IMG/VR virus record: IMGVR_UViG_2537562020_000008
Direction: 5' to 3' (one strand)
Origin: a virus
Taxonomy: Duplodnaviria; Heunggongvirae; Uroviricota; Caudoviricetes
DNA length: 22,406 bases
Below, piece after piece: positions 5,206-22,406 of this stretch (position 1 is the first letter of the stretch; every line of letters starts with the position of its first letter). The notes under the pieces are model-generated. The model saw nothing but the letters and a program-made list of their open reading frames with translations, made no database searches and was not told the DNA's origin. The position numbers and the translations under genes are program-made.

Positions 5206-5898
5206 ATGAACATAGGAAACCGAGTCAGACAACTTCGCCAAGCGAAGAACATGAAAATCGCCGATCTCGCTGAAGCGATAGGAGTAGATGCGGCGAACAT
5301 CTCGCGCTTAGAAACGGGTAAGCAAAAACAATTTACCGAACAAACACTGAGTAATATTGCCAAGAGCTTAGGTGTTGATATTGCTGATCTCTTTACCTCT
5401 GCCCACAAAAGTAATACTGTATATAAAAACAGTAATAATGAGGATGTTGCGCAGGTGAAGGATGTGTTCCGTATTGAAATGCTGGATATCAGTGCCAGTG
5501 CGGGAAATGGCCTTATCCAGGGCGGTGATGTCATTGATGTGATTCATGCCATCGAATACAGAACTGATAATGCTGTATCAATGTTCGGCGGACGACCAGC
5601 CAATCACATCAAAGTTATCAACGTTCGTGGGGACAGTATGTGTCCAACCATTGAGCCCGGAGATCTCATCTTCGTTGATGTCAGCATCAATCAGTTTGAT
5701 GGTGATGGTATATATGTCTTTGGTTTTGATGACAAAATATACGTTAAAAGACTTCAAATGATTCCTGACAAACTGCTGGTGATTTCTGATAACCAGATTT
5801 ACCGTGAATGGGGAATTACTAGCGAAAACGAACACCGATTCATGGTCTTTGGAAAGGTCTTAATCAGTCAGTCGCAAACCCTTAAGAGACATAATTAA
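5206..5898 (+). CDS. cI: cI-like prophage repressor (N-terminal XRE HTH + C-terminal LexA-like S24 peptidase domain)
   Basis: 230 aa; HTH (MKIADLAEAIGVDAANISRLETGK) and C-terminal S24-type region (VRGDSMCPTIEPGDLIFVD ... IYVKRL). Confidence 0.9.
   Translation: MNIGNRVRQLRQAKNMKIADLAEAIGVDAANISRLETGKQKQFTEQTLSNIAKSLGVDIADLFTSAHKSNTVYKNSNNEDVAQVKDVFRIEMLDISASAGNGLIQGGDVIDVIHAIEYRTDNAVSMFGGRPANHIKVINVRGDSMCPTIEPGDLIFVDVSINQFDGDGIYVFGFDDKIYVKRLQMIPDKLLVISDNQIYREWGITSENEHRFMVFGKVLISQSQTLKRHN
5415..5434. promoter_or_regulatory. Near-consensus SOS (LexA) box embedded in the cI coding sequence
   Basis: Seen directly: TACTGTATATAAAAACAGTA versus consensus TACTGTATATATATACAGTA; CTGT-N8-ACAG core intact. 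Confidence 0.5.
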
Positions 5899-7512: not shown

Positions 7513-8337
7513 ATGTCTCAGAACTTAGACGCAACCGCAATTAATCAAATCCATGCCCTTATTTCTGCTCAGGGTGTTAATGAAATTATCAGTAAGATTG
7601 GTGCCGATGCTGTGGCATTGCCTGAGAATTTCCGCATTCATGATCTGGAAAAATTTAATTTAAATCGCTTCCGTTTCCGTGGTGCGCTTTCCACTGCCAG
7701 CATCGATGACTTTACCCGTTATTCTAAAGATCTTGCAGATGAAGGCACCCGCTGCTTTATCGATGCTGATAATATGCGAGCCGTCAGTGTGCTTAACCTG
7801 GGTACTATTGATGAACCAGGTCACGCAGATAACACCGCCACTCTCAAACTGAAAAAGACAGCACCGTTCTCTGCCCTGTTGTCTGTTAACGGCGAGCGTA
7901 ACTCCCAGAAGTCACTGGCAGAATGGATTGAAGACTGGGCCGACTACCTTGTGGGCTTTGATGCTAATGGTGACGCCATTCAGGCAACAAAAGCGGCTGC
8001 GGCGGTCCGTAAAATCACGATTGAAGCAAACCAGACCGCTGATTTTGAAGACAATGACTTCAGCGGCAAACGCTCTCTGATGGAGTCTGTCGAAGCGAAG
8101 ACCAAAGACATTATGCCAGTGGCATTTGAATTTAAATGCATTCCGTTTGAAGGTCTGAAAGAACGTCCGTTTAAATTACGCCTCAGCATTATCACTGGCG
8201 ATCGTCCGGTACTGGTTCTGCGCATTATTCAGCTGGAGGCGGTGCAGGAAGAAATGGCTAACGAATTTCGTGATCTGCTTGTTGAGAAATTCAAGGACAG
8301 CAAAGTAGAAACCTTTATTGGTACTTTCACCGCCTGA
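7513..8337 (+). CDS. yfdQ: YfdQ-like prophage protein (DUF2303 family)
   Basis: 274 aa, the length of the CPS-53 prophage protein YfdQ, and followed by YfdR/S/T-like genes in the same order. Confidence 0.7.
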
Positions 8338-8465
8338 TTTCATTACTGCAAATGCCCCTGCGGGGGCATTTATGGAAACGTAATTAACTCAATAATCGCC
8401 TGATGGCGAGGGTTTTCTTTAACCAAAATTCAGCGCGGTGCAGCGCATATAAAGTGGAGAACAAA

Positions 8466-9660: not shown

Positions 9661-10010
9661 TGGAGCCATACAGCCTCACACTCGATGAGGCCTGTCATTT
9701 TCTCAAGATATCCAGACCGACTGCCATTAACTGGATACGCACAGGGCGTCTTCAGGCAACACGCAAAGATCCCACTAAGAATAAATCTCCTTACCTCACA
9801 ACACGACAAGCCTGCATTGCGGCTCTTCAGTCTCCGCTGCATACTGTCCAGGTGAGCGCGGGTGATGGCATAACAGAGGAAAGAAAATGTCACTCTTCCG
9901 CAGAGGTGAAATATGGTACGCCAGTTTCACATTGCCGAACGGTAAAAGATTTAAACAGTCTCTTGGAACAAAGGACAAAAGGCAGGCGACAGAACTCCAT
10001 GACAAGCTAA
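9660..10010 (+). CDS. xis: Excisionase (P22 Xis-like HTH)
   Basis: [40 protein letters not shown]... matches the P22-type Xis pattern; start shares a nucleotide with the yfdT stop (TAATG); 3' end overlaps the int start. Confidence 0.75.
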
Positions 10011-11050
10011 AGGCTGAAGCATGGCGGGTCAGCAAACTTGGTGAAATACCTGATATAACGTTCGAGGAAGCGTGTGTCAGGTGGCTTGAAGAGAAAGCAC
10101 ATAAAAAATCACTGGACGATGACAAAAGCCGGATCGGATTCTGGCTTCAACATTTCGCAGGAATGCAACTAAGAGACATTACTGAATCAAAAATTTATTC
10201 AGCAATGCAGAAAATGACGAACCGGCGTCATGAGGAAAACTGGAAACTCAGGGCAGAAGCATGCAGAAAAAAAGGGAAACCTGTTCCAGAATACACGCCA
10301 AAACCAGCGTCCGTTGCAACGAAGGCTACGCATCTTTCATTTATAAAGGCCCTACTAAGAGCCGCAGAGCGTGAATGGAAAATGCTGGATAAGGCACCAA
10401 TTATTAAAGTGCCTCAACCAAAGAATAAACGGATCCGCTGGCTGGAGCCCCATGAAGCACAAAGGCTGATTGATGAATGTCCGGAGCCATTAAAGTCTGT
10501 TGTTGAATTTGCACTGGCAACAGGCTTAAGACGCTCGAACATCATCAACCTTGAATGGCAACAAATAGATATGCAGCGCCGGGTGGCATGGATAAACCCG
10601 GAAGAGAGTAAATCAAACCGCGCAATCGGCGTTGCGCTGAATGATACTGCATGTCGCGTTTTGAAAAAACAAATCGGGAATCATCACCGTTGGGTATTTG
10701 TGTACAAGGAAAGCTGTACCAAACCAGACGGAACGAAAGCGCCAACAGTAAGGAAGATGCGGTATGACGCAAACACAGCCTGGAAAGCAGCGCTGAGACG
10801 GGCTGGTATTGATGATTTCAGATTTCACGACTTGAGACACACCTGGGCAAGTTGGCTGGTTCAAGCCGGAGTCCCGTTGTCAGTGTTACAGGAAATGGGA
10901 GGCTGGGAGTCTATCGAAATGGTTCGTCGATATGCTCACCTTGCACCTAATCACCTTACCGAACACGCACGGCAAATAGACTCGATCCTGAACCCATCGG
11001 TCCCAAATTCGTCCCAGTCAAAAAATAAGGAAGGTACTAATGATGTGTAA
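9887..11050 (+). CDS. int: Tyrosine integrase, P22-type
   Basis: 387 aa; [47 protein letters not shown]... and C-terminal [41 protein letters not shown] (catalytic R..HxxR..Y); abuts a tRNA-Thr 3' fragment. Confidence 0.9.
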
Positions 11051-11064
11051 CTTATTGATTTAAA

Positions 11065-11113
11065 TGGTGCCGATAATAGGAGTCGAACCTACGACCTTCG
11101 CATTACGAATGCG
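11065..11113 (-). other. att core: 3' 49 nt of a tRNA-Thr (thrW-type, anticodon CGT) gene; the 5' half of the tRNA is not present here
   Basis: Reverse complement CGCATTCGTAATGCGAAGGTCGTAGGTTCGACTCCTATTATCGGCACCA equals the anticodon-loop-to-CCA segment of tRNA-Thr(CGT) as recalled; the sequence 5' of it is not tRNA-like. Confidence 0.8.
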
Positions 11114-11201
11114 TAAATTGATCTTGTAAAATCAATACCTATCGAATTTAAATGGATTTTTTGCCACAATATTGCCACAGTTCGTTAGGAATCAGACAGA
11201 A

Positions 11202-12275
11202 ATGGCGACTATACGCAAACGTGGTAACTACCAATGGGAAGCTCAAATCCGTAAACGTGGTTTTCCCTCTCAAACCAAAACCTTTAACACCAAAGTAGAA
11301 GCAGAAGCTTGGGCCAAAATGATCGAGTCAGAAATGGCGAGAGGAGTTTGGCTTAGCCGCAGCGAAGCGGAATCTACGACATTGTATGAAGCCCTAACGC
11401 GATATGAAAAAGAGATTGTTCCCGACAAAAAAGGGGCAGTGCAAGACCGATCATTGGTGCGGATACTAAAAGGCACTCAGCTGGCGAAAAACTATATGGC
11501 CAGCATCAGGAGTGCCGATGTCGCCAAGCTGAGAGATGAATGGTTGAAAATCTATGCTCCTGCAACCGTTTTAAGGCGTTTGGCCTTACTTTCTCATGTA
11601 TTCAATGTTTCGCGGAAAGAATGGGGCATGGAGAGCCTGCTGAACCCCGTAGAGGCCATTCGTAAACCCCAACCCAAGAACTCCAGGACCAGACGCCTAG
11701 AAGCGCTGCCTGTAGTTTCTGAGAAAACCGGTGTTACGTCAGGAAAGCAAATAGCCAACGAGATCGAACATATCATCGCCGCAACACATTCATTAGTATT
11801 GCCAGCAATCATTCTTCTGGCGTTAGAGACAGCCATGCGCCGTAGCGAAATCGCAGAGCTTCGATGGCGCTTTATCGATCTTGATCGGCGAGTTGCACAT
11901 CTGCCGGATACTAAGAATGGTAATGCCCGCGATGTCCCTTTATCAACGAAAGCCATTACGATACTGTCCAGTCTCAAGGAACATTCTAAGCCAGCTGCTG
12001 ATAAGGTTTTTGATATGCGTGCAGACGCGATTACCCGAGCTTTTGACCGAGCTGTAAAACGAGCCAGAGAACGATACGAGAAAACAAACTCATTATGTGA
12101 TGAATCTTTCCTTAAAGATTTAAGATTTCATGACCTTCGACATGAAGCAACTTCTCGACTTGCTGAAATTTTCCCTATGCATGAACTAACCAAAATTACA
12201 GGACATAAAGATCCAAGAATGCTAATGCGGTATTATCATCCAAAAGCTGAAGATTTGGCGTTAAAGTTGAAATAA
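11202..12275 (+). CDS. Second tyrosine recombinase/integrase (island integrase; a longer ORF begins at 11172)
   Basis: RBS AGGAA before the ATG at 11202; C-terminal LRFHDLRHEATSRL ... LMRYYH catalytic signature. Confidence 0.8.
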   Translation: MATIRKRGNYQWEAQIRKRGFPSQTKTFNTKVEAEAWAKMIESEMARGVWLSRSEAESTTLYEALTRYEKEIVPDKKGAVQDRSLVRILKGTQLAKNYMASIRSADVAKLRDEWLKIYAPATVLRRLALLSHVFNVSRKEWGMESLLNPVEAIRKPQPKNSRTRRLEALPVVSEKTGVTSGKQIANEIEHIIAATHSLVLPAIILLALETAMRRSEIAELRWRFIDLDRRVAHLPDTKNGNARDVPLSTKAITILSSLKEHSKPAADKVFDMRADAITRAFDRAVKRARERYEKTNSLCDESFLKDLRFHDLRHEATSRLAEIFPMHELTKITGHKDPRMLMRYYHPKAEDLALKLK

Positions 12276-12284
12276 GGACGTTGT

Positions 12285-13061
12285 ATGGATTATAAAAATA
12301 AGTTAGTTGATGCATCACCAAAATTAAACAACCCTCAACTATTGGCTATAATATACTTAATACCTTTTGGATACTTGATTGTAGAAAACCCATTATGGCT
12401 AGAAAATATATACATTGCCGCTCCAATTTTCCTATCATCTATAGCTTTATTAACCAGTGTATACATAGGATATCGTGATTTATTAAATAAAGTATTTAAT
12501 AATGCAGTAGTTAAATGGGGCGTAACTGGCTTTACATATTCCGTATGCTTATGGATCGCAAAGTTTAAGCTTGACATAGCTTATGGTATAGTCCCAGAAA
12601 ACCTTAATTACTCGACATTAGCTTATGCTTTCATGCTCTCATTTCCAATAGGGGCAATGATTTGTGCAATTACAGTCTATATATACATATTTTTGCGAGA
12701 TGTATCCCCAGCAAAAATAGTAATATCCTCTATGATTTCAGTATATATTGGAAGCTTGGCTCAACATCATATACAGATGAACAATCTTCCTGAAAAAATA
12801 ATATTAATAGGACTTATAATTATGGTCCCCTATAACATGGTCAATTTAGCTAGTTCATTAGTTATTAAAAGGAAATTTAATTTTAATCGTTTAGTATCAG
12901 GCTTATCCCTTTTTGCTGTGTCAGTTGCTCTTTTTATTATTAGCATGACAGCAATGAAATACATTGAAAGATTTCAAGAAAAGTTTATTTTTCTCGATGC
13001 AAGAACATCTACGACATGTGGTAGCTCAGAAAGCAAATCTCTTTATATTGAAAAAAAATGA
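12285..13061 (+). CDS. Polytopic inner-membrane protein, unknown function
   Basis: 258 aa with several long hydrophobic segments; starts 10 nt after the integrase stop with an AAGGA RBS; AT-rich codon usage. Confidence 0.6.
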   Translation: MDYKNKLVDASPKLNNPQLLAIIYLIPFGYLIVENPLWLENIYIAAPIFLSSIALLTSVYIGYRDLLNKVFNNAVVKWGVTGFTYSVCLWIAKFKLDIAYGIVPENLNYSTLAYAFMLSFPIGAMICAITVYIYIFLRDVSPAKIVISSMISVYIGSLAQHHIQMNNLPEKIILIGLIIMVPYNMVNLASSLVIKRKFNFNRLVSGLSLFAVSVALFIISMTAMKYIERFQEKFIFLDARTSTTCGSSESKSLYIEKK

Positions 13062-13162
13062 AAATCAGTGTTATAAAATATCAGGAAATAAATTCTCGGA
13101 GTTAAGACTAACTCTTGTAGATAAAAACATCTTGAATATAAATAATAAAGGCACTTCAACTT

Positions 13163-13390
13163 ATGAACAAAAATAACCCTGCTAATTCATTTTCTATAGA
13201 AGCAAGGAAAGAAGCTTTTCGGAGAGCTGAAGCCAGTCTTTTTTTATCAAGTAAAGATCCCAAAGGCTCCTCATTTTTTAATGAAATAAAAACTAAGGTA
13301 ATCAATGGAGAGCTAACCTATGAAGAGGCAAAGAGAGAAGTATTAAATTATCACATTGAACAATCTAAAAATCAAAATAAAAGAGGCTAA
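13163..13390 (+). CDS. Small VbhA-like (Fic-antitoxin fold) protein - tentative; canonical inhibitory Glu motif not evident
   Basis: 75 aa; RRAEASLFLSS ... VINGELTYEEAKREVLNYH parallels VbhA (ARNALASQRLEG ... VVVGELETSDVIKDLMERI) by eye. Confidence 0.4.
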   Translation: MNKNNPANSFSIEARKEAFRRAEASLFLSSKDPKGSSFFNEIKTKVINGELTYEEAKREVLNYHIEQSKNQNKRG

Positions 13391-13406
13391 CATTTAGTTA
13401 GCCTCT
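13382..13406 (-). terminator. Hairpin terminator for the minus-strand 70-aa gene, overlapping the 3' end of the plus-strand small gene
   Basis: AGAGGCTAAC-attta-GTTAGCCTCT perfect 10-bp stem; a U-rich tract follows on the minus-strand transcript. Confidence 0.5.
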
Positions 13407-13411
13407 TCTCA

Positions 13412-13624
13412 CTAGTGAGCTATTTTATAGTCCCTTAATGCATTTTTAAGTAACTCCGTTTGCTCATCAGCATCATCATAATTATAAATTCCCGTAGCAG
13501 AATAATACTCTTCGATGCATAGAATATTTATCAATGGTTCACAAATCTCTTTAATAAAATCCTTGTTGTTATCGGCAAAAATAATTTTTATTCCTTCCAA
13601 AACAAAGCTATTATAATCAGCCAT
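13412..13624 (-). CDS. Hypothetical small acidic protein (70 aa)
   Basis: Strong RBS (AGGAGGTGGATAATG); acidic composition; no family recognised. Confidence 0.55.
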   Translation of the reverse strand: MADYNSFVLEGIKIIFADNNKDFIKEICEPLINILCIEEYYSATGIYNYDDADEQTELLKNALRDYKIAH

Positions 13625-13693
13625 TATCCACCTCCTTACAGGTGTTTAGTGGAAGCGTCAGTTAACGTTACCGCGCTAACTGACGCGCCTAAA

Positions 13694-15097
13694 TCAAGAT
13701 TTTTTACTGCCAGTTAAACTATCACCCTCAAACTCATCCTGTTCGTGGTTAGTCTGACGATCGGCTGTGTGTTTACGTATTTGATTCGCTATTTCCCCAC
13801 CAACGGTCTGTTGTCTTCGGATAGTATTAGTACTTCCCTTCATCATCTGATACTCCGAAGCTCCGTTAGACAGCCCGCTCGCCATGTGAGAAGCCATGCG
13901 GCCAGCTCGTGAGAATGATGAAGCAAACCCCTGGCTTCCTCCGCTGACGCTACCTGTATTACTCCCTGCAGAAGAACCACCGGAACCGCCTGATGGTTGT
14001 CCTCCAGAAGTATCTACGGAACCGGTATCTTCCCCTCCGCCAAATCCTCCACCTGAACCACCTTTATCACCAGAACCAGATTCTTCGGCCATCGCCGCTT
14101 GTGCAGATTCAAATGCTGCTTTTAGAGCGGAAGCACCACCACTGACTTGAGCTGTAGCACTTATTGCCATTGCCCCAGCGCCACTGATTGCAGTAGTAGC
14201 AGCGCCAGTAATCATACCTGCTCCAAAACCACCGATCCCTTGTAAGGACGCTCCTCCAACAACGCCTGATAACAACAACGGTAATTTATTCGTCAATACT
14301 AAAAGAATAATTGACGCCAGAAGTAAAACAATAAGACTATTAAGATCAGGAATATCATTTTTAATAATAGAAAAATACTGATCTATAAATGATTGCCCAA
14401 TCCCAATGATTAATGTCATCGTAAATAACTGAATACCAATCGATAATACTGTGCGTAAGTAATTTATTGCTATATCAGAAGTCCATTTCGAGCCACCAAA
14501 CCCAAGCAAAATAACTCCTGCATAACACAACACCCATGCAGAAACTAACATTATTAGCATATTTATCGCGATAAGCGCCATTACTACTAATACTATTATC
14601 GCGACGGTTATCATAATGGTCGAAATCATTGGAGACCAAATTGATGCTGCTGAACTGACCTTTGTTAATATCACAAATGCCATATCCACTATGCTGGAGG
14701 GTGAAATACCAGTACTTGTTCCTAAAGCATTTGCTGCAAGTTGTCTCATTGAGTTAATTATAGATTGTGATATGGCTGGGCCGTTGATTAAAAGATAATA
14801 AAAAAAACCAATCACGGCAAAAAAACGAACTATTTCTGCAAGTGCACTGATTAAACCTTCCCCTTGCATCGCCAACATACCAAATGTCCAAACCATACTT
14901 ATTAATACCAACCCCCAGAAGAGCCAATTTGCATAATCACCAATTACTAATGACCATGTGCTGGCTACTTGCTGAAACTTATCTAATAACGTATCAAGTA
15001 ATCCGCTACTATCTAATTGACCAGCATAAGCATTTACAGAAAACAAAAAAAACATTCCTAAAAAAGTGAGCTTGCTTACTATTCTCATAATTACCAT
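13694..15097 (-). CDS. trbL: TrbL/VirB6-like type IV secretion protein (polytopic, Gly/Ser-rich C-terminal tail)
   Basis: 467 aa; multiple TM segments then a low-complexity tail (GSGGGFGGGEDTGSVDTSGGQPSGGSGGSS); directly follows trbJ and a trbK-like ORF, as in P-type Tra2 clusters. Alternative start at 15088. Confidence 0.75.
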   Translation of the reverse strand: MVIMRIVSKLTFLGMFFLFSVNAYAGQLDSSGLLDTLLDKFQQVASTWSLVIGDYANWLFWGLVLISMVWTFGMLAMQGEGLISALAEIVRFFAVIGFFYYLLINGPAISQSIINSMRQLAANALGTSTGISPSSIVDMAFVILTKVSSAASIWSPMISTIMITVAIIVLVVMALIAINMLIMLVSAWVLCYAGVILLGFGGSKWTSDIAINYLRTVLSIGIQLFTMTLIIGIGQSFIDQYFSIIKNDIPDLNSLIVLLLASIILLVLTNKLPLLLSGVVGGASLQGIGGFGAGMITGAATTAISGAGAMAISATAQVSGGASALKAAFESAQAAMAEESGSGDKGGSGGGFGGGEDTGSVDTSGGQPSGGSGGSSAGSNTGSVSGGSQGFASSFSRAGRMASHMASGLSNGASEYQMMKGSTNTIRRQQTVGGEIANQIRKHTADRQTNHEQDEFEGDSLTGSKKS

Positions 15098-15264
15098 TCT
15101 CGCTTAGGGCTAGGATTGTTATTGCCACGCAGGGCACATTTATCGTAGTTATGTTCGTTCAATTTATTCTCTGGCGTCGATAAACAATCTTCATCTTTTT
15201 TATCGCAAGAGCATAGAATTAATGAAATTATTAGAATAAAAATGACCAAAAGTTTATCTTTCAT
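15091..15264 (-). CDS. trbK: TrbK-like small lipoprotein (entry exclusion), 57 aa; below the ORF-track size cutoff
   Basis: Own translation: MKDKLLVIFILIISLILCSCDKKDEDCLSTPENKLNEHNYDKCALRGNNNPSPKREW; signal peptide with lipobox-like LCSC; lies between trbJ and trbL. Confidence 0.5.
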   Translation of the reverse strand: MKDKLLVIFILIISLILCSCDKKDEDCLSTPENKLNEHNYDKCALRGNNNPSPKREW

Positions 15265-15275
15265 TCAGCTCTCCC

Positions 15276-16070
15276 TCACCAAATTCGCTTCGGGCTTGGT
15301 GTGTTCTCGCCAGCTAACGCTTTTTCATCAGCGACTATTTGTTGGGCTTCTTTATCAGCCTCAGCCTGTGCCAGTGTTGCTGCAGCGTTTTGCTGAGCTA
15401 CCAGAAGCGAGCGGATTTGCAGCAACTGGTTCGTTTGAGCACTGGCAAGCTGGTTAGCGGCCTGAATAGCTTCCATTTGCCCTTGTGCGCCGGTTGCCTG
15501 CGTTTGCAAATCTGCAAGGTTGTCAGCATCGCTTTGCAGTGTTTCCTGCTGTTCGTCAAGAGCCTTAAATACAGCGTCATTGGCCTTTTTACGTGCCTCA
15601 GAGCTGTTCTGTTCAGCTTTGCGCAGTGCGCTAATTTCATCCGCAGTACATTCAACATTACTGTTAAAGCACGGTGATGAGCGGTAGTAATTCACGTCCT
15701 GATAACGTTTCAGATATGAATCAAGACTCCCGGCCTGGTTTTTGTAGTAATTTAGGGTGTCCTGCGCCTGCAACAATTTGTTGATGGTCGAATTGGCCTG
15801 ATCCCAGATATAGGCTGCAGGTGCGACTGTATTTTTGAGCATGTTTTCATACTGCTGCAGCTGCGTCTGGTACTGCTGGATCTGTTTTGCCACAGCCTGA
15901 ACGTTGTTGACTGCGCTGATTGTGGTCTGCACCACATTAGTACCATCGATTACAGGGATACCGGCTGTCGCCGGTAATGCCATGATGGACGCCAGGAAGG
16001 AAGCAGCTAATGATTTTTTAGCTGCTAAAATCCCTCTCAGTGATGAAAATACTCGGAGCATTAACTTCAT
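15276..16070 (-). CDS. trbJ: TrbJ/VirB5-like type IV secretion protein
   Basis: Signal peptide then GIPVIDGTNVVQTTISAVNNVQAVAKQIQQYQTQLQQYENMLKNT, matching the TrbJ signature as recalled; Gln-rich coiled-coil C-terminus. Confidence 0.8.
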   Translation of the reverse strand: MKLMLRVFSSLRGILAAKKSLAASFLASIMALPATAGIPVIDGTNVVQTTISAVNNVQAVAKQIQQYQTQLQQYENMLKNTVAPAAYIWDQANSTINKLLQAQDTLNYYKNQAGSLDSYLKRYQDVNYYRSSPCFNSNVECTADEISALRKAEQNSSEARKKANDAVFKALDEQQETLQSDADNLADLQTQATGAQGQMEAIQAANQLASAQTNQLLQIRSLLVAQQNAAATLAQAEADKEAQQIVADEKALAGENTPSPKRIW

Positions 16071-16151
16071 TTGCCCACCTCAAATTTAACTGATTATTAA
16101 TATTGAAAACTCGTACTTTTAACAAATACAGATATTTAGGGAACCATAAAT

Positions 16152-16517
16152 TTATTTATTCAAGATTCTATCCATAATATTTCTTAGTTCTTGTCTGGTT
16201 GATTCTATTTTAGCAAGCAACGTTTTTATCAATGAGGGTGAAAAATCAACTGTGCGTGGATCGTTAGCTAACCACAGTTTAAGTAACCCACCAAGTCGAC
16301 CAAGATCAGCATTTACTCGGCTAAGCTCTACAACCTGTTCAATATCTACCATAGACTCAACCTGATAACCCATTGCTACTTTACGAATGAAACTCGCTAC
16401 ACTTAAGCCGGATGCTTCTGCATTATCCTGGATTTGCGCTTTTTCATCTGGCAAACAATAAACTTTAATTGGTGTACTATTTTTTCTAGTCTGAGAAACG
16501 GTCATATCATTCTCCAT
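16152..16517 (-). CDS. mobC: MobC-like relaxosome accessory protein (ribbon-helix-helix)
   Basis: 121 aa; RHH-like N-terminus (KVYCLPDEKAQIQDNAEASGLSVASFIRKVAMG) and DLGRLGGLLKLWL resembling the MobC-family conserved segment. Confidence 0.55.
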   Translation of the reverse strand: MENDMTVSQTRKNSTPIKVYCLPDEKAQIQDNAEASGLSVASFIRKVAMGYQVESMVDIEQVVELSRVNADLGRLGGLLKLWLANDPRTVDFSPSLIKTLLAKIESTRQELRNIMDRILNK

Positions 16518-16584
16518 ACAGGCGGTAGCCGATCAGCCTCGCAGAGCAGGACTCCGTTGAGCAGCTCAGCTGCGAATAAGGGAA

Positions 16585-16635
16585 GGTAAAGTAGAAGCAC
16601 CGTTTACGGTGGGCCTACTTTACATATCCTGCCCT
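16585..16635. other. oriT-like site: 9-bp inverted repeat around an inner palindrome, followed by a MOBP-type nick motif ATCCTGC
   Basis: Seen directly: GTAAAGTAG-aagcaccgtttacggtgggc-CTACTTTAC then acatATCCTGCcc at 16626..16632; lies ~70 bp upstream of mobC. Confidence 0.4.
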
Positions 16636-16787
16636 ACATTTGCCGTTGTGAATCTGTGTACGTATTGTGTATTTCTGTGTACTCAGTGTGTTTTCCTAAA
16701 GCATTTGTGCAGGATTAGTAGTGTAAAAATGTGCAGCATATGTGTTTATTGGAATGGAAATTATTTGAATGCCCCTAAGAGATATTT

Positions 16788-17081
16788 TTATTCTCGCGGC
16801 TTGGGTTTTGGCGGCCTGCCACGTTTCCTTTGACATCTATTTATCTCTTTCGCTATATCGTCATTTTCTGTCTTTGACTCAACAGATTTATCTATCCAGT
16901 CCTTAACATCTTCTCTACGCCAGAGAAGACGTTTATTACCGGGAAGACGGCATCTTGGTGGAAGACATTTTGGATTTCGCGTTGCATCACTGCGGATACT
17001 TTTTACAGTTTTCTTTAATGCAAAAGCCAACTCTTCAACGGTTATAAGTTCTGGCATAACTGATTTCATCGAAGAACCCAT
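16788..17081 (-). CDS. Excisionase/AlpA-like HTH DNA-binding protein with basic AT-hook-like tail
   Basis: 97 aa; LITVEELAFALKKTVKSIRSDATRNPKCLPPRCRLPGNKRLLWRREDVKDWI is an AlpA/Xis-type HTH pattern; C-terminal RKRGRPPKPKPRE. Confidence 0.55.
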   Translation of the reverse strand: MGSSMKSVMPELITVEELAFALKKTVKSIRSDATRNPKCLPPRCRLPGNKRLLWRREDVKDWIDKSVESKTENDDIAKEINRCQRKRGRPPKPKPRE

Positions 17082-17103
17082 CTCTCAGTAGAAATTTGAG
17101 GAT

Positions 17104-17131
17104 TTTAGCGGCTAAAATTTTAGCCGCTAAA
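17104..17131. promoter_or_regulatory. Perfect 28-bp palindrome just upstream of the excisionase-like gene (operator or bidirectional hairpin)
   Basis: Seen directly: TTTAGCGGCTAAAA|TTTTAGCCGCTAAA. Confidence 0.45.
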
Positions 17132-17382
17132 GTTTGCTAACCAACGTTATGAATTGAGAATAATTAAAACTTACTGGCAAAAAGAATAATGTCAACAGGG
17201 TTTTTATTCATCGGATTCTTACTCCATATGAAATTGGTTTTATTGACCGATTTCTGAATGACACTAAGGTTTTAATAATTCCTTTAATCTTTTTGGTTAT
17301 ATAAAAGGTTAAAGATCAGGTTAGAGAGGTGTGGAAAAGCGATATATTCACTTGTTTACTATGACAATTTTAAATTATATCC

Positions 17383-17448
17383 GTACCTCAAATGTCATGA
17401 AAGCGTACCTCATATGTCATAAAGGCGTACCTCATATGTCATATAATA
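17383..17448. repeat. Three tandem copies of a 22-bp unit (GTACCTCATATGTCAT core)
   Basis: Seen directly: gtacctcaaatgtcatgaaagc / gtacctcatatgtcataaaggc / gtacctcatatgtcatataata. Confidence 0.85.
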
Positions 17449-17528
17449 AAAAATAAGCAAACAAGTTATACACAATATTATTAACAGAATCTGTGGATAA
17501 ATACACAGATTATACATGATAAAATAGA

Positions 17529-17734
17529 TTGTTTAGCTAAACTAAATAACAATAAATAAAATGAAACAAAATGTAAATAACAGGGGGGGTGTAGGTGACT
17601 TATAAATTTGGTTAGCTAACCTTTATAAGAAACACTGTTTGTAAATGATTCATTTCTGACAACGGATATATCGAATTTGAGTAAGAAAAACACTTCAACT
17701 AACCTTACTCTCTGATTTGTTTAGCTAAACAAAT
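17529..17734. promoter_or_regulatory. Three palindromes with a shared TTAGCTAA core upstream of the HigA-like gene (putative operators)
   Basis: Seen directly: ttgtttagctaaac (17529..17542), ggttagctaacc (17610..17621), atttgtttagctaaacaaat (17715..17734, perfect 20 bp). Confidence 0.5.
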
Positions 17735-17775
17735 TACTGTAAGGAATCCGATGACGTTAAAAAAAAGGGGGGGAT

Positions 17776-18033
17776 ATGAGGACAATAAATGCTGCACCTT
17801 CAACTGTCGGAGAGATTTTATACGAAGAATTCTTGAAACCATTGGATATGCCTCCCGCAAGACTTGCTGAACTGATGGATACATCATATGAAAAAATTTG
17901 GGAAATAATTAAAAATGAGCGAAATATAACTCTTGAAGAAGCTATTCAACTCTCGATAATTTTCAATACAGATGCATCTTTTTGGGTGAAACTGCAAGAG
18001 CTACATGAGGCATGGTTTAATAAACAAAAGTAA
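17776..18033 (+). CDS. HigA-like HTH (XRE-family antitoxin-type) regulator, no cognate toxin ORF detected
   Basis: 85 aa; VGEILYEEFLKPLDMPPARLAELMDTSYEKIWEIIKNERNITLEEAIQLSIIFNTDASFWVKLQ matches the HigA/VapI pattern; preceded by an A8G7 homopolymer pair. Confidence 0.65.
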   Translation: MRTINAAPSTVGEILYEEFLKPLDMPPARLAELMDTSYEKIWEIIKNERNITLEEAIQLSIIFNTDASFWVKLQELHEAWFNKQK

Positions 18034-18233
18034 GGTTATTCAATTAGATTACTTAGTACTAATACATAATTTGCTTTGAATAATACTCATACATTTCTAA
18101 CGACTTATTAAAGCGATAATATACTCGGACGACTGAGGATTAAAAAATCCGATCCTTGATGATGGGAACCTGCCATGACTAGGTAAGTCATTTTAGCAGT
18201 GGTACAGGCGACATTAAAAGCCGATATAAAGAA

Positions 18234-18266
18234 GCCCGACTGGTAAGATCGGGCCTTTTTATTTTT
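18234..18266 (+). terminator. Rho-independent terminator
   Basis: GCCCGA-ctggtaaga-TCGGGC hairpin followed by CTTTTTATTTTT. Confidence 0.6.
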
Positions 18267-18688
18267 CCACTCTGGCCTGAATAGAACATCCTACATTAGA
18301 CGTTAAGATCTTACATCTAATTATCCGAAACTACTAATGGATGCGTAGTTGCATTTGACCTGACCGCCCATTTGCGGGTTACTCTACCATCGCCAATAAA
18401 GTCCGGCTACTCGAATTCGGAAGTATTAGGCTATAGGTCATAAACCTGAATAACTGCTATGTGCTGAAGCGGATAAAGCTGACATCATTATGCACCAATC
18501 AACTCGGTGTAAGTCAGCTAGTTGGTGATGGAGTGACTTGTCAATAGTTGTAGCCCCTACCAGTGCATCGGAGATTCTTGAGTGTAACCTTAGTTGCATT
18601 AATCAGAAGTAAAGGAAACGTACTATGAAAATCAGTACTCTTAATCAAGAGATCCCCCGTTCTCTCACGGAAAAGGGGGATTGAATTT

Positions 18689-19951
18689 TCAAATTTTCTT
18701 TTTAGCGATAAAAATACAGTAAAAATATAAGGTTTTGATAATGTGATTAATGCTGTGCACCTCGCGAAATAATAGTAATAGCTTCCTCATAAAAGACATG
18801 AAACTAAGTTCGTTGTATTTAGTGCGTTCCATTCCTTCCTTAGCGAAATAGTAGGTTATCATCTGAATTGACTCTTTATATTCATATTTATAATGTGCAA
18901 TGCCATTTCGCAGCTTGTTGTCTAAAGCATTGAGATCAACTATATAAAAGCTATCATCCAATCCGCTTATTTTCGTGCCTAAATCAACGTTTGCATATTC
19001 GTTGAGACTAGAAAAACCTTTAATTAAATCGCCTTTTTTATTTAGTCTTACTGAATCGTCAAAAATATTATGATCTCCGCGTTTTAATAAGTTATTCAAT
19101 CCGGCCACAATTATTAATTGCCGAGAGAATACTTCAGATAAGTCTTTGTAAAAATTGTTACAGTCATCAAATTCGGCAGTTGAAACTCGAGCAGGAATCA
19201 TTGATAAATCTACGTTTTTATCATAATCATAGTAAAGCGCTGGGCGTGAAGGGAGTTCAAAGTCAAGCATTTTGGGATATAGGCTTAAACAATCGAAATG
19301 CAAACTTTTCAGAAACCCACTTCCAATAATATCATCTAAAAATTTATTTAGCTGTTTTGGATGATTTTTCTGAATATAATGAAGAAATTGTGGCATTTTT
19401 TCACTAATTTCAGCATTATGTGCATGTATTGTAAAGGGAAATGACATTGCAGAGGTTGCTGTATAAAGTGCGGAAAGGATATCTTGTATTTTTAGCGAAC
19501 GAGGTTTTTTCAGAGTAGGTAATTCTTTCATTAGGTTACTGAAAGTATTGTAATTTCCTTGTTTGTATTGAGTAATGAGTCGCTGGAGCTTATCGCGATG
19601 TTTATAAATATAATTCATTCCATTTAGATGTGCGTTCAGCATTAAGTATTTTTCATGACCTATTGCACTTGTTATTTTTAAGAATGCTGTTTTTCCTTTT
19701 TCGTATTTTCCAAAGCCTACGGGAAAATCTAAATGCAAATCGATGAATGGATTTGTTGTGCCAAAGTCATTGCTTTCTACAGTTTCCGCACCGTTAAATA
19801 CAGGCTCTCCCTCCCCAAGAGTAAACGATATATTATTCTCACAATTTGGACATGCAAATTGGAACGGTTGTATGTCTCGATTAGACATACCTATTCTTGT
19901 ATCAATGACCGTGTCACATACAAGGCATTTAAATTGCTGTAAAAAATTCAT
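18689..19951 (-). CDS. Uncharacterised 420-aa protein: N-terminal CxxC...CxxC zinc ribbon and C-terminal R-N-x3-H (HEPN-type) motif
   Basis: C9/C12 and C34/C37 (CLVC ... CPNC); RNGIAH at aa 348..353; strongly AT-rich codon usage; no family recognised. Confidence 0.6.
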   Translation of the reverse strand: MNFLQQFKCLVCDTVIDTRIGMSNRDIQPFQFACPNCENNISFTLGEGEPVFNGAETVESNDFGTTNPFIDLHLDFPVGFGKYEKGKTAFLKITSAIGHEKYLMLNAHLNGMNYIYKHRDKLQRLITQYKQGNYNTFSNLMKELPTLKKPRSLKIQDILSALYTATSAMSFPFTIHAHNAEISEKMPQFLHYIQKNHPKQLNKFLDDIIGSGFLKSLHFDCLSLYPKMLDFELPSRPALYYDYDKNVDLSMIPARVSTAEFDDCNNFYKDLSEVFSRQLIIVAGLNNLLKRGDHNIFDDSVRLNKKGDLIKGFSSLNEYANVDLGTKISGLDDSFYIVDLNALDNKLRNGIAHYKYEYKESIQMITYYFAKEGMERTKYNELSFMSFMRKLLLLFREVHSINHIIKTLYFYCIFIAKKKI

Positions 19952-20198
19952 AAATATTTTATTAATCCTATAAATTATAAGTTAAGTATTAGTCTTTTAT
20001 CTACAAACCAAAGCCACTTTACTACTTTACCTAACTGCACTTTAAACAATCATAAGTTCTTTTTTTTTAAAAAGGTAGTCCAAAGATACCAATTTATTCA
20101 ATATCAACGAGAATTCGAGACTCCTATGTGAGTAAAAAACTATGAGCTTCATGCCATGCTTTCAATAAATGTCTTCAGTTACCCATAAATTTACTGGA

Positions 20199-20726
20199 TT
20201 AACAATTTGTAGTCTTTCCGACCAAATTACCGCGCGCAGTGTGACCCCATACTTTAGAGGTCACCTTATCTCTTTCCACTAGTTGTTTACGGTGCATCAA
20301 ATCGGCAAGCAGTATTGAAACAAAGAACATGAATTTTGTTTTGGGAGTATTAGGAACATCTTTGGGTCCAAGCCAAGGTAGCTGCTCCAGTTGATTTTGT
20401 ATTTTGGGTGTTGCGAAGCTAACACCATTCCAACTATGCCCAAAAGCATTTCTAATGCTACGCAGTGTGTTTAGTTCTTTGTATTCGTGTTCCATTATCA
20501 GTCCTAACGCATATGCTAAGCCTGTTCTAGCAGCAAAAGATGATAAAGGCGCTGTTGCACCATTCAGTAGACCTTTAGCTACTTTGTCATTTAACAGGTG
20601 AGCCTGGATGATCTCGGATAACCACTCATCGAAAATGGATGCTGCTATTAGAACAGAGCCACGATCTGATTCTTTATTTAGTTCGGACAAAAATTGACCG
20701 AGTTCAATTTGGGTTTTATCACTCAC
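20199..20726 (-). CDS. Uncharacterised 175-aa alpha-helical protein with R-N-x3-H (HEPN-type) motif; by-eye resemblance to MtlR/DUF4145-like domains
   Basis: RNAFGH at aa 92..97 in ...LAYALGLIMEHEYKELNTLRSIRNAFGHSW; by-eye resemblance to the MtlR helical domain. Confidence 0.55.
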   Translation of the reverse strand: MSDKTQIELGQFLSELNKESDRGSVLIAASIFDEWLSEIIQAHLLNDKVAKGLLNGATAPLSSFAARTGLAYALGLIMEHEYKELNTLRSIRNAFGHSWNGVSFATPKIQNQLEQLPWLGPKDVPNTPKTKFMFFVSILLADLMHRKQLVERDKVTSKVWGHTARGNLVGKTTNC

Positions 20727-21214
20727 AGACTCTGGAACTCCTTTCTCAAAAATTCAACATGAGGACGCTTCGGTCGCACATCAATCTTAACCATTAGATT
20801 ATGAAATTGTGTTAGGTCTGGGTCAAACTATGAACAAAAACAGAAAAAATTATTGTGACGTTATTTAGGGGGACCTACAATGACACATTTTAAACAATTA
20901 CTTTAATATCAATAAATTGGATCGTATTACTGTGTTCCTATTATTGGTTTAGCTCAGCTTGTCGCTCACAGCGGACCTTCAGCTCGATAGCAAGTCCGCT
21001 CCGTTGGAGTGCCAGATGCGCTCTAAATTTGATGGCTAGTATTGAAGAGATACTTGGGCATCATGGTTATGGTGTAAATACCGTCTGTGATACCCGCAGA
21101 GGTGCTAGGTTTAGGCACTGAGAAGGATACATTGAACATGAATTCAGAGTGATGTAACACAAGTCATAGAAAATTAGTGATTTATATTGAAAAGGGGGTT
21201 ATTTTATTAAAGCA

Positions 21215-21234
21215 AGGCCGCCTTTAGGCAGCCT
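21215..21234 (-). terminator. Putative terminator hairpin for the 225-aa gene
   Basis: On the minus-strand RNA: AGGCUGCC-UAAA-GGCGGCCU (one G-U pair) followed by a U-rich tract; 6 nt after the stop codon. Confidence 0.4.
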
Positions 21235-21240
21235 CTTATT

Positions 21241-21918
21241 TTACATGTAGATATTCATTAAACTGTCAAATAGTCTTTTGGTTAACTCTTTTTCCGCTCG
21301 TGCTTCGATTTGAGCCATACCATTTCGGAAGAGTTTTAATTTACCGCTAAATTCTTGGTCATGAATAGTACATGTCAATCGATCAAGTCTCATTTTTTTG
21401 TGAATAAGCTCATCTTTGAAATATTTTTTAAGATCGCTGGTACTATTAATTTGCATCTTGGCAAGAGCAAATTCAGCAACTTGAATTTGAGATACATCTA
21501 GTTGCACTATATTAAGTGTCAACTCTGTGTTTAAAGAACTGAACCATATGAACGGGTCAATCTCAATCTCTTCTAAGCTGGTACCAAGACCAAGGTTTTT
21601 TACCAGTGCCTGAGCAAATGGTTTAAGTGTTCTCGGTGGATTATCAATAAGTAAAACTGGGGTGTATTGTTCGTCAAAACTGAAAGATGTTACTCTATAT
21701 TCAATGCGTTCAACAGCGGTACTGTTGCCGTATAGATTACTTATTCTATCTTCGCTAATTATCTTTTCGATGAAGCGAGCGTGAAAATGAGATGTTCGTG
21801 ATTTATCAAATATAAACCCTTTCCCTTTCTCTTCAGTAAAAGGATCACGCATGAGTTTTTCAACTGTTTCACTAGTAGTGAAACGATTGTTGAGTTTAAT
21901 CCATTTAAATTTTTTCAT
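21241..21918 (-). CDS. Hypothetical protein (225 aa), unknown function
   Basis: Long ORF with AT-rich codon usage; 4-nt gap to the upstream small ORF suggests an operon; no family recognised. Confidence 0.55.
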   Translation of the reverse strand: MKKFKWIKLNNRFTTSETVEKLMRDPFTEEKGKGFIFDKSRTSHFHARFIEKIISEDRISNLYGNSTAVERIEYRVTSFSFDEQYTPVLLIDNPPRTLKPFAQALVKNLGLGTSLEEIEIDPFIWFSSLNTELTLNIVQLDVSQIQVAEFALAKMQINSTSDLKKYFKDELIHKKMRLDRLTCTIHDQEFSGKLKLFRNGMAQIEARAEKELTKRLFDSLMNIYM

Positions 21919-21922
21919 GCTC

Positions 21923-22120
21923 TTACACCTTTTTACCCGTCACGATATTATAGGCGTCTGCTGCTGACTGTTCAATTAGTAGGCTGATTTTCTTCTTTTC
22001 AACTTCATTTGCTGCACGAATAGTAACATTGTATCCACTACCTTTTTGGTTATTGATTCCTTTAATTTGATAGGAAAAATCAGAGCAATTTTCTGAATCC
22101 TTAAAGAAAGCTTCAACCAA
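21923..22120 (-). CDS. Hypothetical small protein, possibly 5'-truncated by the adjacent IS1
   Basis: Reading frame stays open into the IS1 terminus; the first candidate start is a TTG right at the IS1 boundary. Confidence 0.35.
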   Translation of the reverse strand: MVEAFFKDSENCSDFSYQIKGINNQKGSGYNVTIRAANEVEKKKISLLIEQSAADAYNIVTGKKV

Positions 22121-22125
22121 AATCC

Positions 22126-22406
22126 GGTAGTGACTCCAACTTACTGATAGTGTTTTATGTTCAGATAATGCCCGATGACCTTGTCATGCAGCTCCACCGA
22201 TTTTGAGAACGACAGTGACTTCCGTCCCAGCCTTGCCAGATGTTGTCTCAGATTCAGATTATGTCGCTCAATGCGCTGAGTGTAACGCTTGCTGATAACG
22301 TGCAGCTTTCCCTTCAGGCGTGATTCATACAGCGGCCAGCCATCCGTCATCCATACCACGACCTCAAAGGCCGACAGCAGGCTCAGAAGACGCGCCAGTG
22401 TGGCCA
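22126..22406 (-). mobile_element. IS1 (right-end inverted repeat at 22126..22148; element continues beyond window end)
   Basis: Terminus GGTAGTGACTCCAACTTACTGAT matches the IS1 IR as recalled, followed by insB coding sequence. Confidence 0.9.
22141..22406 (-). CDS. insB: IS1 transposase InsB, C-terminal part (5' end outside window)
   Basis: ...[71 protein letters not shown] matches the IS1 InsB C-terminus. Confidence 0.9.

Follow-up and report, generated by a model that had tools for sequence, protein, structure and literature searches.

Positions 13694 to 16635 of a 22,406-nt stretch of DNA (IMG/VR record IMGVR_UViG_2537562020_000008; hereafter the window, whose positions serve as coordinates throughout) hold four genes of IncP-type conjugation systems, trbJ, trbK-like, trbL and traJ, together with an origin of transfer (oriT) and with no relaxase, coupling protein or ATPase. 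An initial annotation made from the sequence took this set for the remnant of a decayed integrative conjugative element (ICE) or integrative mobilizable element (IME), and the question that the locus raises is whether it is such a remnant or the working part of an element that still moves. We conclude that the transfer module is intact and is not a decaying remnant, and that the element it belongs to most likely borrows IncP plasmids to spread. With good confidence, we identify the segment as the transfer module of a 13.6-kb IME inserted at the tRNA gene thrW, of the island type represented by StmGI_0323 and working like the islands GIsul2 and PIME.

The transfer module and its oriT

All that the initial annotation described is present at its coordinates, far above what chance would give, although one gene label proved wrong and another found no profile match. 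The trbJ and trbL assignments of the initial annotation were confirmed by profile searches, in which both genes exceed the curated cut-offs of their equivalog families, and trbL also matches Pfam TrbL with 103 bits. The gene that had been labelled mobC gave no MobC family match in Pfam or NCBIfam and is instead the IncP traJ gene, encoding a relaxosome accessory protein that binds oriT; its product has a Pfam NikA-like match of 81 bits, and in NCBIfam it matches ribbon-helix-helix families only, those of TraJ (NF010451), MobA and MbpA. Compared with TraJ of the enterobacterial IncP plasmid used for reference, the protein shows 63% identity. Comparisons also took in three other IncP-typed plasmids, two of them conjugative IncP-1.

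A 57-aa open reading frame (ORF) sits between trbJ and trbL and equals the plasmid TrbK in length. In an alignment of six TrbK proteins, that of the island included, the invariant residues comprise the lipobox cysteine, another two cysteines, one serine and the terminal tryptophan, and the island protein ends in PSPKREW, the tail of an IncP-1 beta TrbK. We regard the product as a candidate entry-exclusion lipoprotein of an island-specific type, and the suggestion that an entry-exclusion-type gene had been retained is supported; the ORF is intact in all variants examined. It had also been predicted that so short a gene would be missed by annotation; RefSeq lacks it in four related islands and lists it as "hypothetical" in a fifth.

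The site next to traJ matches the Rfam traJ-II motif, which corresponds to the RP4 oriT (PMC6206304). The ATCCTGC motif reported earlier is present, while the inverted repeat just 5' of the nick is imperfect and exceeds the 9 bp first given to it. The nick region is identical to that of the plasmid oriT and fits the consensus YATCCTG/Y (slash, nick), which predicts a nick on the + strand between 16631 and 16632. Over about 150 bp, oriT shares approximately 92-95% identity with the region between traJ and traK in enterobacterial IncP plasmids of 41-72 kb; like the nick region, the right arm of the repeat is the same in island and plasmid. Strain 1409 carries compensatory changes in both arms of the repeat. 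At the nick, strain 1409 and related islands integrated at guaA carry the A-to-G variant ATGTCCTG, and this island and the plasmids carry ATATCCTG.

Profile searches turned up no relaxase, coupling protein or ATPase in the island ORFs scanned, and tblastn with the plasmid TraI gave none either, in agreement with the initial annotation, and no pseudogene fragments of such genes were found in the island. The four genes that are there, traJ, trbJ, trbK-like and trbL, are intact in every island variant examined. Ratios of nonsynonymous to synonymous substitution (dN/dS) between variants are 0.06-0.2 for traJ, trbJ and trbL and 0.2-0.34 for trbK, with synonymous divergence reaching saturation across the variants compared.

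The module from trbL to oriT occurs at a coverage of at least 80% in about 200 of 5,426 complete Escherichia coli genomes, with 84-100% identity. E. coli strains whose cargo is wholly different have the complete thrW-type backbone at 97%, 94% and 77% identity, and the same backbone is found at thrW in two Enterobacter species. In the type integrated at guaA (E. coli HS, Shigella, Dickeya, Erwinia, Phytobacter) the module is approximately 84-87% identical, and at least eight further genera contain related modules. A module that is intact in about 200 E. coli chromosomes and in other genera, and that is under purifying selection (dN/dS about 0.1), in an island with attachment (att) repeats and an integrase, led us to reject the description as a decayed element.

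Table 1. Features of the thrW island and its left boundary (window positions; a period marks features given without strand).
Feature	Position	Strand	Evidence or remark
Left island boundary	11064-11113	.	50-bp copy of thrW (tRNA-Thr) 3' end
Island tyrosine integrase	11172-12275	+	Pfam Phage_integrase 93.6 bits; phrog_1 integrase
Backbone membrane-protein gene	12285-13061	+	phrog_26661, profile positions 1-258 of 296
VbhA-family antitoxin-like gene	13163-13390	+	RefSeq annotation; 40% BLASTP identity to IncP plasmid gene (plasmid 8153-8350)
70-aa ORF, candidate type I toxin	13412-13624	-	5' leader overlapped antisense by PtaRNA1
PtaRNA1 antisense RNA (plasmid-transferred antitoxin RNA)	13618-13690	+	Rfam RF01811 48.6 bits; gathering score 47
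trbL (VirB6 family)	13694-15097 or 13694-15088	-	TIGR02783 TrbL_P equivalog 270.6 bits; cut-off 128.85
trbK-like lipoprotein gene, 57 aa	15091-15264	-	Position, lipobox, cysteine pattern, C-terminal motif
trbJ (VirB5 family)	15276-16070	-	NF010452 equivalog 381.8 bits; cut-off 286
Nucleotide identity to plasmid	15985-15356		89-98%
Nucleotide identity to plasmid	15355-14123		41-68%
Nucleotide identity to plasmid	14122-13853		82-90%
KorB-operator-like site in trbJ 5' end	16017-16029	.	One mismatch here
traJ, ribbon-helix-helix protein gene	16152-16517	-	NF010451 161.8 bits; cut-off 134
IncP-type oriT	16535-16634	-	Rfam RF01760 traJ-II 93.1 bits; gathering score 40
oriT inverted-repeat arms	16579-16603, 16606-16630		Imperfect
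oriT nick region	16622-16634		ACATATCCTG/CCC (slash, predicted nick)
ATCCTGC motif	16626-16632		
97-aa excisionase/AlpA-fold DNA-binding protein	16788-17081	-	phrog_66 E=3.4e-6; AlphaFold model
Two exact KorB operators (O_B, TTTAGCSGCTAAA)	17104-17116, 17119-17131	.	0.07 expected by chance
Miniature oriV-like region	17290-17500	.	GGTTAAAGATC repeats, iterons, A+T-rich stretch, DnaA boxes
Three 22-bp TrfA-type iterons	17382-17447	.	None expected by chance
DnaA box	17467-17475		TTATACACA
DnaA box	17492-17500 (complement)		TTATCCACA
Exact KorA operators (O_A, GTTTAGCTAAAC)	17531-17542, 17719-17730	.	
KorA operator variant	17610-17621	.	GGTTAGCTAACC
Orphan HigA/XRE-type helix-turn-helix (HTH) gene	17776-18033	+	51% identity to plasmid HigA antitoxin
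Variable cargo	18689-22128	-	420-aa protein, MtlR/HEPN-like protein, Hp3 and Hp2

Candidate helpers, the trbJ-trbK-trbL cassette and helper-type sites

The stretch from trbJ to trbL is approximately 92% identical to 111 plasmids of 41-94 kb from Escherichia, Klebsiella, Salmonella and Enterobacter, all typed as IncP, MOBP and MPF_T and 109 of them predicted to be conjugative. The oriT is 90-95% identical in 54 plasmids, all enterobacterial among the matches listed, and 74-78% identical to classical IncP-1 plasmids, again among the matches listed. Annotation of the candidate helper plasmid gives TraI, the Trb type IV secretion genes, TrfA, a KorA-like TrfB protein and a ParB/KorB protein. Near identity of oriT to that of one enterobacterial IncP clade allows a candidate helper to be named for these relaxase-less islands, likely this particular clade and not just any IncP plasmid; its identification as a helper appears to be unreported. 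Mobilisation in trans, which had been proposed for the locus, is supported; the MOBP/IncP helper that had been expected is kept, narrowed from IncP plasmids at large.

Identity between module and plasmid shifts at sharp mosaic breakpoints (Table 1), which may be a sign of contact with helpers. At the protein level the core of TrbJ is 96% identical to its plasmid counterpart and its last 19 residues 42%, the TrbK-like protein is 26% identical to the plasmid TrbK, and TrbL is 57% identical over residues 1-310, its N-terminal membrane domain, and 85% over residues 311-410. With tblastn, island-type TrbK found no match in the 72,556 plasmids of PLSDB, where no plasmid matches the TrbL N-domain at more than 59%. 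The cassette made up of TrbJ tail, TrbK and TrbL N-domain is conserved among islands though divergent from all plasmids, which is the pattern expected if recombination with helpers goes on and the island nevertheless retains an exclusion or stalk specificity of its own. The pattern agrees with what has been proposed for GIsul2 and the IncP island and with the mechanism demonstrated in SGI1 (PMC5704250). This private cassette appears to be a new observation.

VirB5 and VirB6, the families of TrbJ and TrbL, form the stalk of the type IV secretion system (T4SS), as seen in the structure of the R388 system. The C-terminal tails of TrbJ and TrbK (codons 15276-15330 and 15091-15150) resemble each other and change together across the loci compared. 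The TrbJ and TrbK tails read TPSPKRIW and NPSPKREW in the island, TKSPAQSW and TKSPEKKW in the enterobacterial plasmid, and ASPARTW and PSPKREW in IncP-1 beta, and a P. aeruginosa plasmid has NWLEL in both; TrbK may mimic the VirB5 tail. Separately, NZ_CP121188.1, a 26.6-kb P. aeruginosa plasmid classed as mobilizable by MOB-suite, carries traJ-traI-trbJ-trbK-trbL, and the stretch examined lists no T4SS genes besides these, a gene set from which it follows that the hitchhiker module exists as a plasmid too.

Beyond oriT the island carries further sites of the kinds found on the helper. The pair of exact KorB operators lies 23-50 bp upstream of the gene for the 97-aa protein, and at least one exact operator is retained at this position in the variants examined. 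The KorB-like site within trbJ is exact in the plasmid and in other islands at the same position. All three KorA sites are identical in four of four aligned thrW-type variants while their flanks diverge. For these searches the operator sequences were those published for RK2 (PMC2680271), and the plasmid itself has 14 exact O_B and 4 exact O_A.

The oriV-like region is conserved in variants down to 77% identity. In the plasmid, oriV adjoins trfA and has about seven iterons of the same 22-bp period; homology between the two spans the GGTTAAAGATC repeats and one DnaA box, and certain iterons of the more divergent island variants have the consensus sequence of the plasmid. No replicase was found, there being no Rep family match in the backbone and no tblastn match to the RepA of E. 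coli HS or to plasmid TrfA. A distant relative from the Pseudomonas group has an alpA-like gene followed by a TrfA-family gene, from which we reason that the enterobacterial thrW lineage probably lost its replicase and now depends on helper TrfA. A lineage without replicase that keeps miniature helper cis sites, iterons and KorA/KorB operators, across its variants appears to be a new observation as well; the PIME preprint makes no mention of KorA, KorB or their operators, and states that the helper signal is unknown (bioRxiv 10.64898/2026.01.12.698999).

As for the islands at guaA, most of those found have no homologue of the HS-type RepA, and they carry iteron-like sites, one or two in number, together with an exact KorB operator immediately upstream of traJ and, in the usual case, a second one past the integrase. 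The KorB link may be general to the island family.

The island, its backbone and its cargo

The window is set in an E. coli chromosome adjoining thrW and proA. Several complete E. coli genomes match positions 11100-22128 at 99.8-100% identity. The surroundings were read from the annotation of strain E1316, in whose near-identical island the exact 50-nt direct repeats are spaced 13,619 bp from start to start, which gives the island size. The left repeat is listed in Table 1; its partner lies inside the intact thrW, about 13.6 kb rightward and beyond the window. At the left junction ARAGORN found no tRNA, and the Rfam tRNA match is only partial and sub-threshold (11072-11139). A 112-nt "tRNA-Ser" placed at this junction by RefSeq in several genomes (11065-11176) scores only 22 bits with Rfam and was rejected, being the 50-bp thrW fragment joined to island DNA; it is probably an annotation artefact. 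To the left, positions 1 to about 11050 are a CPS-53-like lambdoid prophage with yfdP-yfdT homologues, which forms a tandem with the island at the distal repeat of thrW; it has a cI-type repressor (5206-5898) and an integrase (9887-11050), and IS66-family genes stand at the far left.

From left to right the island holds the integrase, the membrane-protein gene, the VbhA-like gene, the 70-aa ORF with antisense PtaRNA1, trbL, trbK-like, trbJ, traJ and oriT, followed by the gene for the 97-aa protein, a 700-bp non-coding region, the HigA-like HTH gene, the cargo and thrW. The integrase is 92-99% conserved across the thrW-type islands of E. coli and Enterobacter. The backbone membrane protein has 296 aa in relatives and 258 aa here, owing to a frameshift in a run of eight A at 13044-13051 where E1316 has seven; this may be a true frameshift or a homopolymer sequencing error. 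Directly downstream of trbL, the 70-aa ORF is kept in variants, with an internal stop in that of strain AH50, and the stretch 13412-13690 (70-aa ORF plus PtaRNA1) resembles a type I toxin-antitoxin stabilisation module. The HigA-like gene is the final conserved backbone gene ahead of the variable cargo. On the plasmid HigA is paired with a RelE/ParE toxin, whereas the HigA-like and VbhA-family genes of the island are orphans, which might neutralise plasmid addiction or serve as an island repressor.

The AlphaFold model of the 97-aa protein (predicted local distance difference test, pLDDT, 80-86 over residues 11-60) has a winged-helix fold of the excisionase/AlpA type. Its closest folds by Foldseek are BldC, the RdfS excisionase, phage Xis and the GIsul2 excisionase (PDB 8c3t), at E-values of only 0.04-0.1. 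The protein has no Pfam AlpA or Phage_AlpA match and a match to HTH_17 at only E=0.22; its homologues are called AlpA by some sources. PDB sequence searches with it and with TraJ returned nothing. From its modelled fold we consider it a candidate recombination directionality factor and regulator.

At the cargo position, other variants carry different genes, among them those of a cyclic oligonucleotide-based antiphage signalling system (CBASS), an ABC-three-component system and a transporter. Here, Hp3 and Hp2 belong to the three-gene candidate defence system Hp1-Hp2-Hp3 of PADLOC, with Hp1 beyond the window. Identity to the E1316 island stops at 22128, and an IS1-family terminal inverted repeat starts at 22129 and interrupts Hp2; to judge from this end sequence, the element at 22129-22406 is probably of the IS1 family. 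The 420-aa ORF (18689-19951) was considered as the replicase and rejected, being absent from variants with the same backbone, without a family and without a PDB fold match. Its AlphaFold model is confident (pLDDT 87) with no significant PDB fold match. The protein family is widespread in Gammaproteobacteria (359 matches) and has no Pfam domain; its N-terminal beta domain contains CxxC...CxxC, and R-N-x-I-A-H, a motif of the HEPN type (Rx4H), is invariant. The 420-aa protein may be a new defence or abortive-infection protein.

Relatives, proposed mechanism and competing readings

Islands of this kind are already known from the PIME family (preprint of 2026), from GIsul2 and, since 2017, from Salmonella in the form of StmGI_0323. 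This genomic island occupies thrW in Salmonella Typhimurium and was described only as plasmid-derived, with no oriT, helper or mechanism given (PMC5575072). It shares with the present island the thrW site, the tandem arrangement with a prophage, and the ordered products HigA, a 97-aa protein, TraJ (121 aa), TrbJ (264 aa), a 57-aa protein, TrbL, a 70-aa protein, a membrane protein and a recombinase, a match that rests on the product sizes and order in Table 4 of PMC5575072 and not on sequence alignment. Its cargo gene sizes match those of the E. coli AH50 variant, whereas the cargo here consists of the 420-aa protein, an MtlR-like protein and the PADLOC Hp1-3 candidate system.

The PIME family resembles the island in its integrase, traJ, trbJ-trbK-trbL, IncP-like oriT, large cargo of defence genes and IncP helpers, which for the island are predicted; the AlpA-type regulator of PIMEs has a putative counterpart in the 97-aa protein. 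In the guaA island of E. coli HS the traJ-trbL module is also present, at approximately 84% nucleotide identity, and core genes that run opposite to the integrase, as here, are a likeness to PIME4. PIME1 elements require IncP plasmids for excision and transfer (bioRxiv 10.64898/2026.01.12.698999). Unlike a PIME, the island has a different integrase and att site (thrW), a 97-aa regulator without a Pfam Phage_AlpA match, and helper-type iterons with KorA/KorB operators; the replicase, a core component of PIMEs, was not found, and we therefore do not file the island as a strict PIME.

GIsul2 and the "IncP island" (Burkholderia, Brucella) are likewise small, with homologues of TrbJ, TrbK and TrbL and few or no other transfer genes, and IncP helpers have been proposed for them (PMC5704250). 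The GIsul2 excisionase appears to share the fold modelled for the 97-aa protein; GIsul2 differs in having repA/repC and resistance genes and in inserting at guaA, and the IncP island in having its own TraI and TraK. According to the preprint authors, sequence similarity between the GIsul2, IncP island and PIME groups is low (bioRxiv 10.64898/2026.01.12.698999). It has been proposed that GIsul2 and the IncP island reshape the mating pore and so escape exclusion, and for SGI1 such reshaping was shown (PMC5704250). SGI1 and the MGI islands, which exploit IncC plasmids, also lack a relaxase and carry an oriT, sites bound by regulators of the helper and genes for a small number of mating-pore subunits, by which exclusion is altered (PMC5704250), and SGI1 hijacks the partition system of its helper (PMC5704250; PMC10954446). 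They are unrelated to the present island in sequence, their subunits are the MPF_F proteins TraN, TraG and TraH, and their helper signal is the activator AcaCD and not repressors. IncP-1 plasmids of the RK2/RP4 type and enterobacterial relatives such as pIso00199_02 are the source of the island oriT, traJ, trbJKL, TrfA iterons and KorA/KorB operators; compared with them the island retains just traJ, three of the Trb genes and the cis sites, arranged differently from the plasmid, and is integrated by an integrase of its own.

We propose that the island would excise once a suitable IncP plasmid is in the cell. TraJ of the island or of the helper would bind the inverted-repeat arm nearest the nick, the helper relaxase TraI would nick ATCCTG/C, and the helper coupling protein and type IV secretion system would export the strand, with the alpA-like side entering the recipient first, where the integrase would insert the island at the 3' end of thrW. 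In the mating channel the island TrbJ (VirB5), TrbK-like protein and TrbL (VirB6) would substitute for their helper counterparts, and the resulting pore would be of a private exclusion type, letting the island enter cells that already hold the helper. The helper initiator may replicate the excised circle through the three TrfA-type iterons, or the iterons may titrate it, and the KorA and KorB operators would link island expression, and perhaps partition, to the global regulators of the helper.

Several points weigh against this interpretation. Excision, nicking, transfer, replication and exclusion are all inferred for this island type, and so is the helper, by comparison of the module, the sequence seen being the 22,406-nt window only. 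The single relative tested among those with TraJ alone, the guaA-type PIME1 EcRHB23-C07, was excised with pB10 and pKJK5 and not mobilised (bioRxiv 10.64898/2026.01.12.698999), which might relate to the ATGTCCTG nick variant of guaA-type islands. The 57-aa ORF, TrbK-like by the features in Table 1, has no TrbK match in Pfam or NCBIfam. The iterons of this copy depart from the plasmid consensus at two positions (GTACC vs GCCCC), and three may be too few for an origin. A promoter scan of 16450-17800 gave two weak promoter-like sites, fewer than in shuffled sequence, and since KorA and KorB are repressors the direction of regulation is ambiguous. This copy also combines the frameshifted backbone gene with the IS1 in the cargo.

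That last point would suit an inert remnant, the functionless leftovers of an integrated IncP plasmid or decayed ICE, as would the failure of the island scans to find relaxase, coupling protein, ATPase or replicase, and the description of StmGI_0323 simply as of plasmid origin. We hold this to be very improbable, given dN/dS of 0.06-0.34 across variants at saturated synonymous divergence, four ORFs intact in all of them, operators and iterons kept exact while their flanks diverge, exact att repeats with an integrase, and near-identical copies in several genera; nor is the order colinear with the plasmid, as traJ abuts trbJ and the oriV-like region abuts oriT. The module might alternatively protect the host, with trbK, together with trbJ and trbL, excluding or interfering with incoming IncP plasmids or plasmid-dependent phages and self-transfer being secondary. 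A retained and conserved TrbK-type lipoprotein, a cargo of defence genes and the reduced amplification of helper plasmids by PIME1 (bioRxiv 10.64898/2026.01.12.698999) fit this, and iterons and KorB sites in trans could lower helper copy number, as inferred from RK2 biology. Exclusion, on the other hand, needs neither an oriT with an intact nick nor a dedicated TraJ, and in RP4 it requires TrbK alone (cited in PMC5704250), so that trbJ and trbL would go unexplained; moreover, cross-exclusion of the plasmid clade whose oriT matches is doubtful because the island TrbK is only 26% identical to that of the clade. We judge such a role improbable, though less so than inert leftovers.

Somewhat less remote, yet still unlikely in our view, is a mobilizable island whose trbJKL have no effect on exclusion and complement or boost helper transfer, or serve a step such as pilus assembly in certain hosts. 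Cross-complementation between PIMEs and helpers has been reported, for the relaxase (bioRxiv 10.64898/2026.01.12.698999), the SGI1 homologues are dispensable for mobilisation (PMC5704250), and a TrbJ core 96% identical to the helper protein fits interchangeable parts. What speaks against it is the cassette itself, which diverges sharply from all plasmids and is conserved among islands, the pattern of a separate specificity.

Within the preferred reading, that of an intact IME moved by IncP plasmids with a private cassette, a wider proposal is conceivable, and we offer the whole of it tentatively. The thrW lineage could be a replicase-less "plasmid satellite" in which all four classes of helper cis site are miniaturised (oriT, TrfA iterons/oriV, KorA operators and KorB operators/centromere), and on which the helper relaxase, replication initiator, global repressors and partition proteins could all act. 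KorA and KorB could then be the long-sought signal by which such islands sense a helper, and the covariation of TrbJ tail, TrbK and TrbL N-domain, with TrbK mimicking the TrbJ tail, could mean that IncP entry exclusion is aimed at the VirB5-VirB6 stalk.

Islands of this type would carry anti-phage defence genes among the Enterobacterales by riding IncP plasmids, a biology that has recently been opened up. The conserved KorA/KorB operators and TrfA-type iterons suggest a means by which they sense and exploit the helper, and the private cassette of TrbJ tail, TrbK and TrbL N-domain, which includes a 57-aa gene that often goes unannotated, would provide a handle on the target of IncP entry exclusion.

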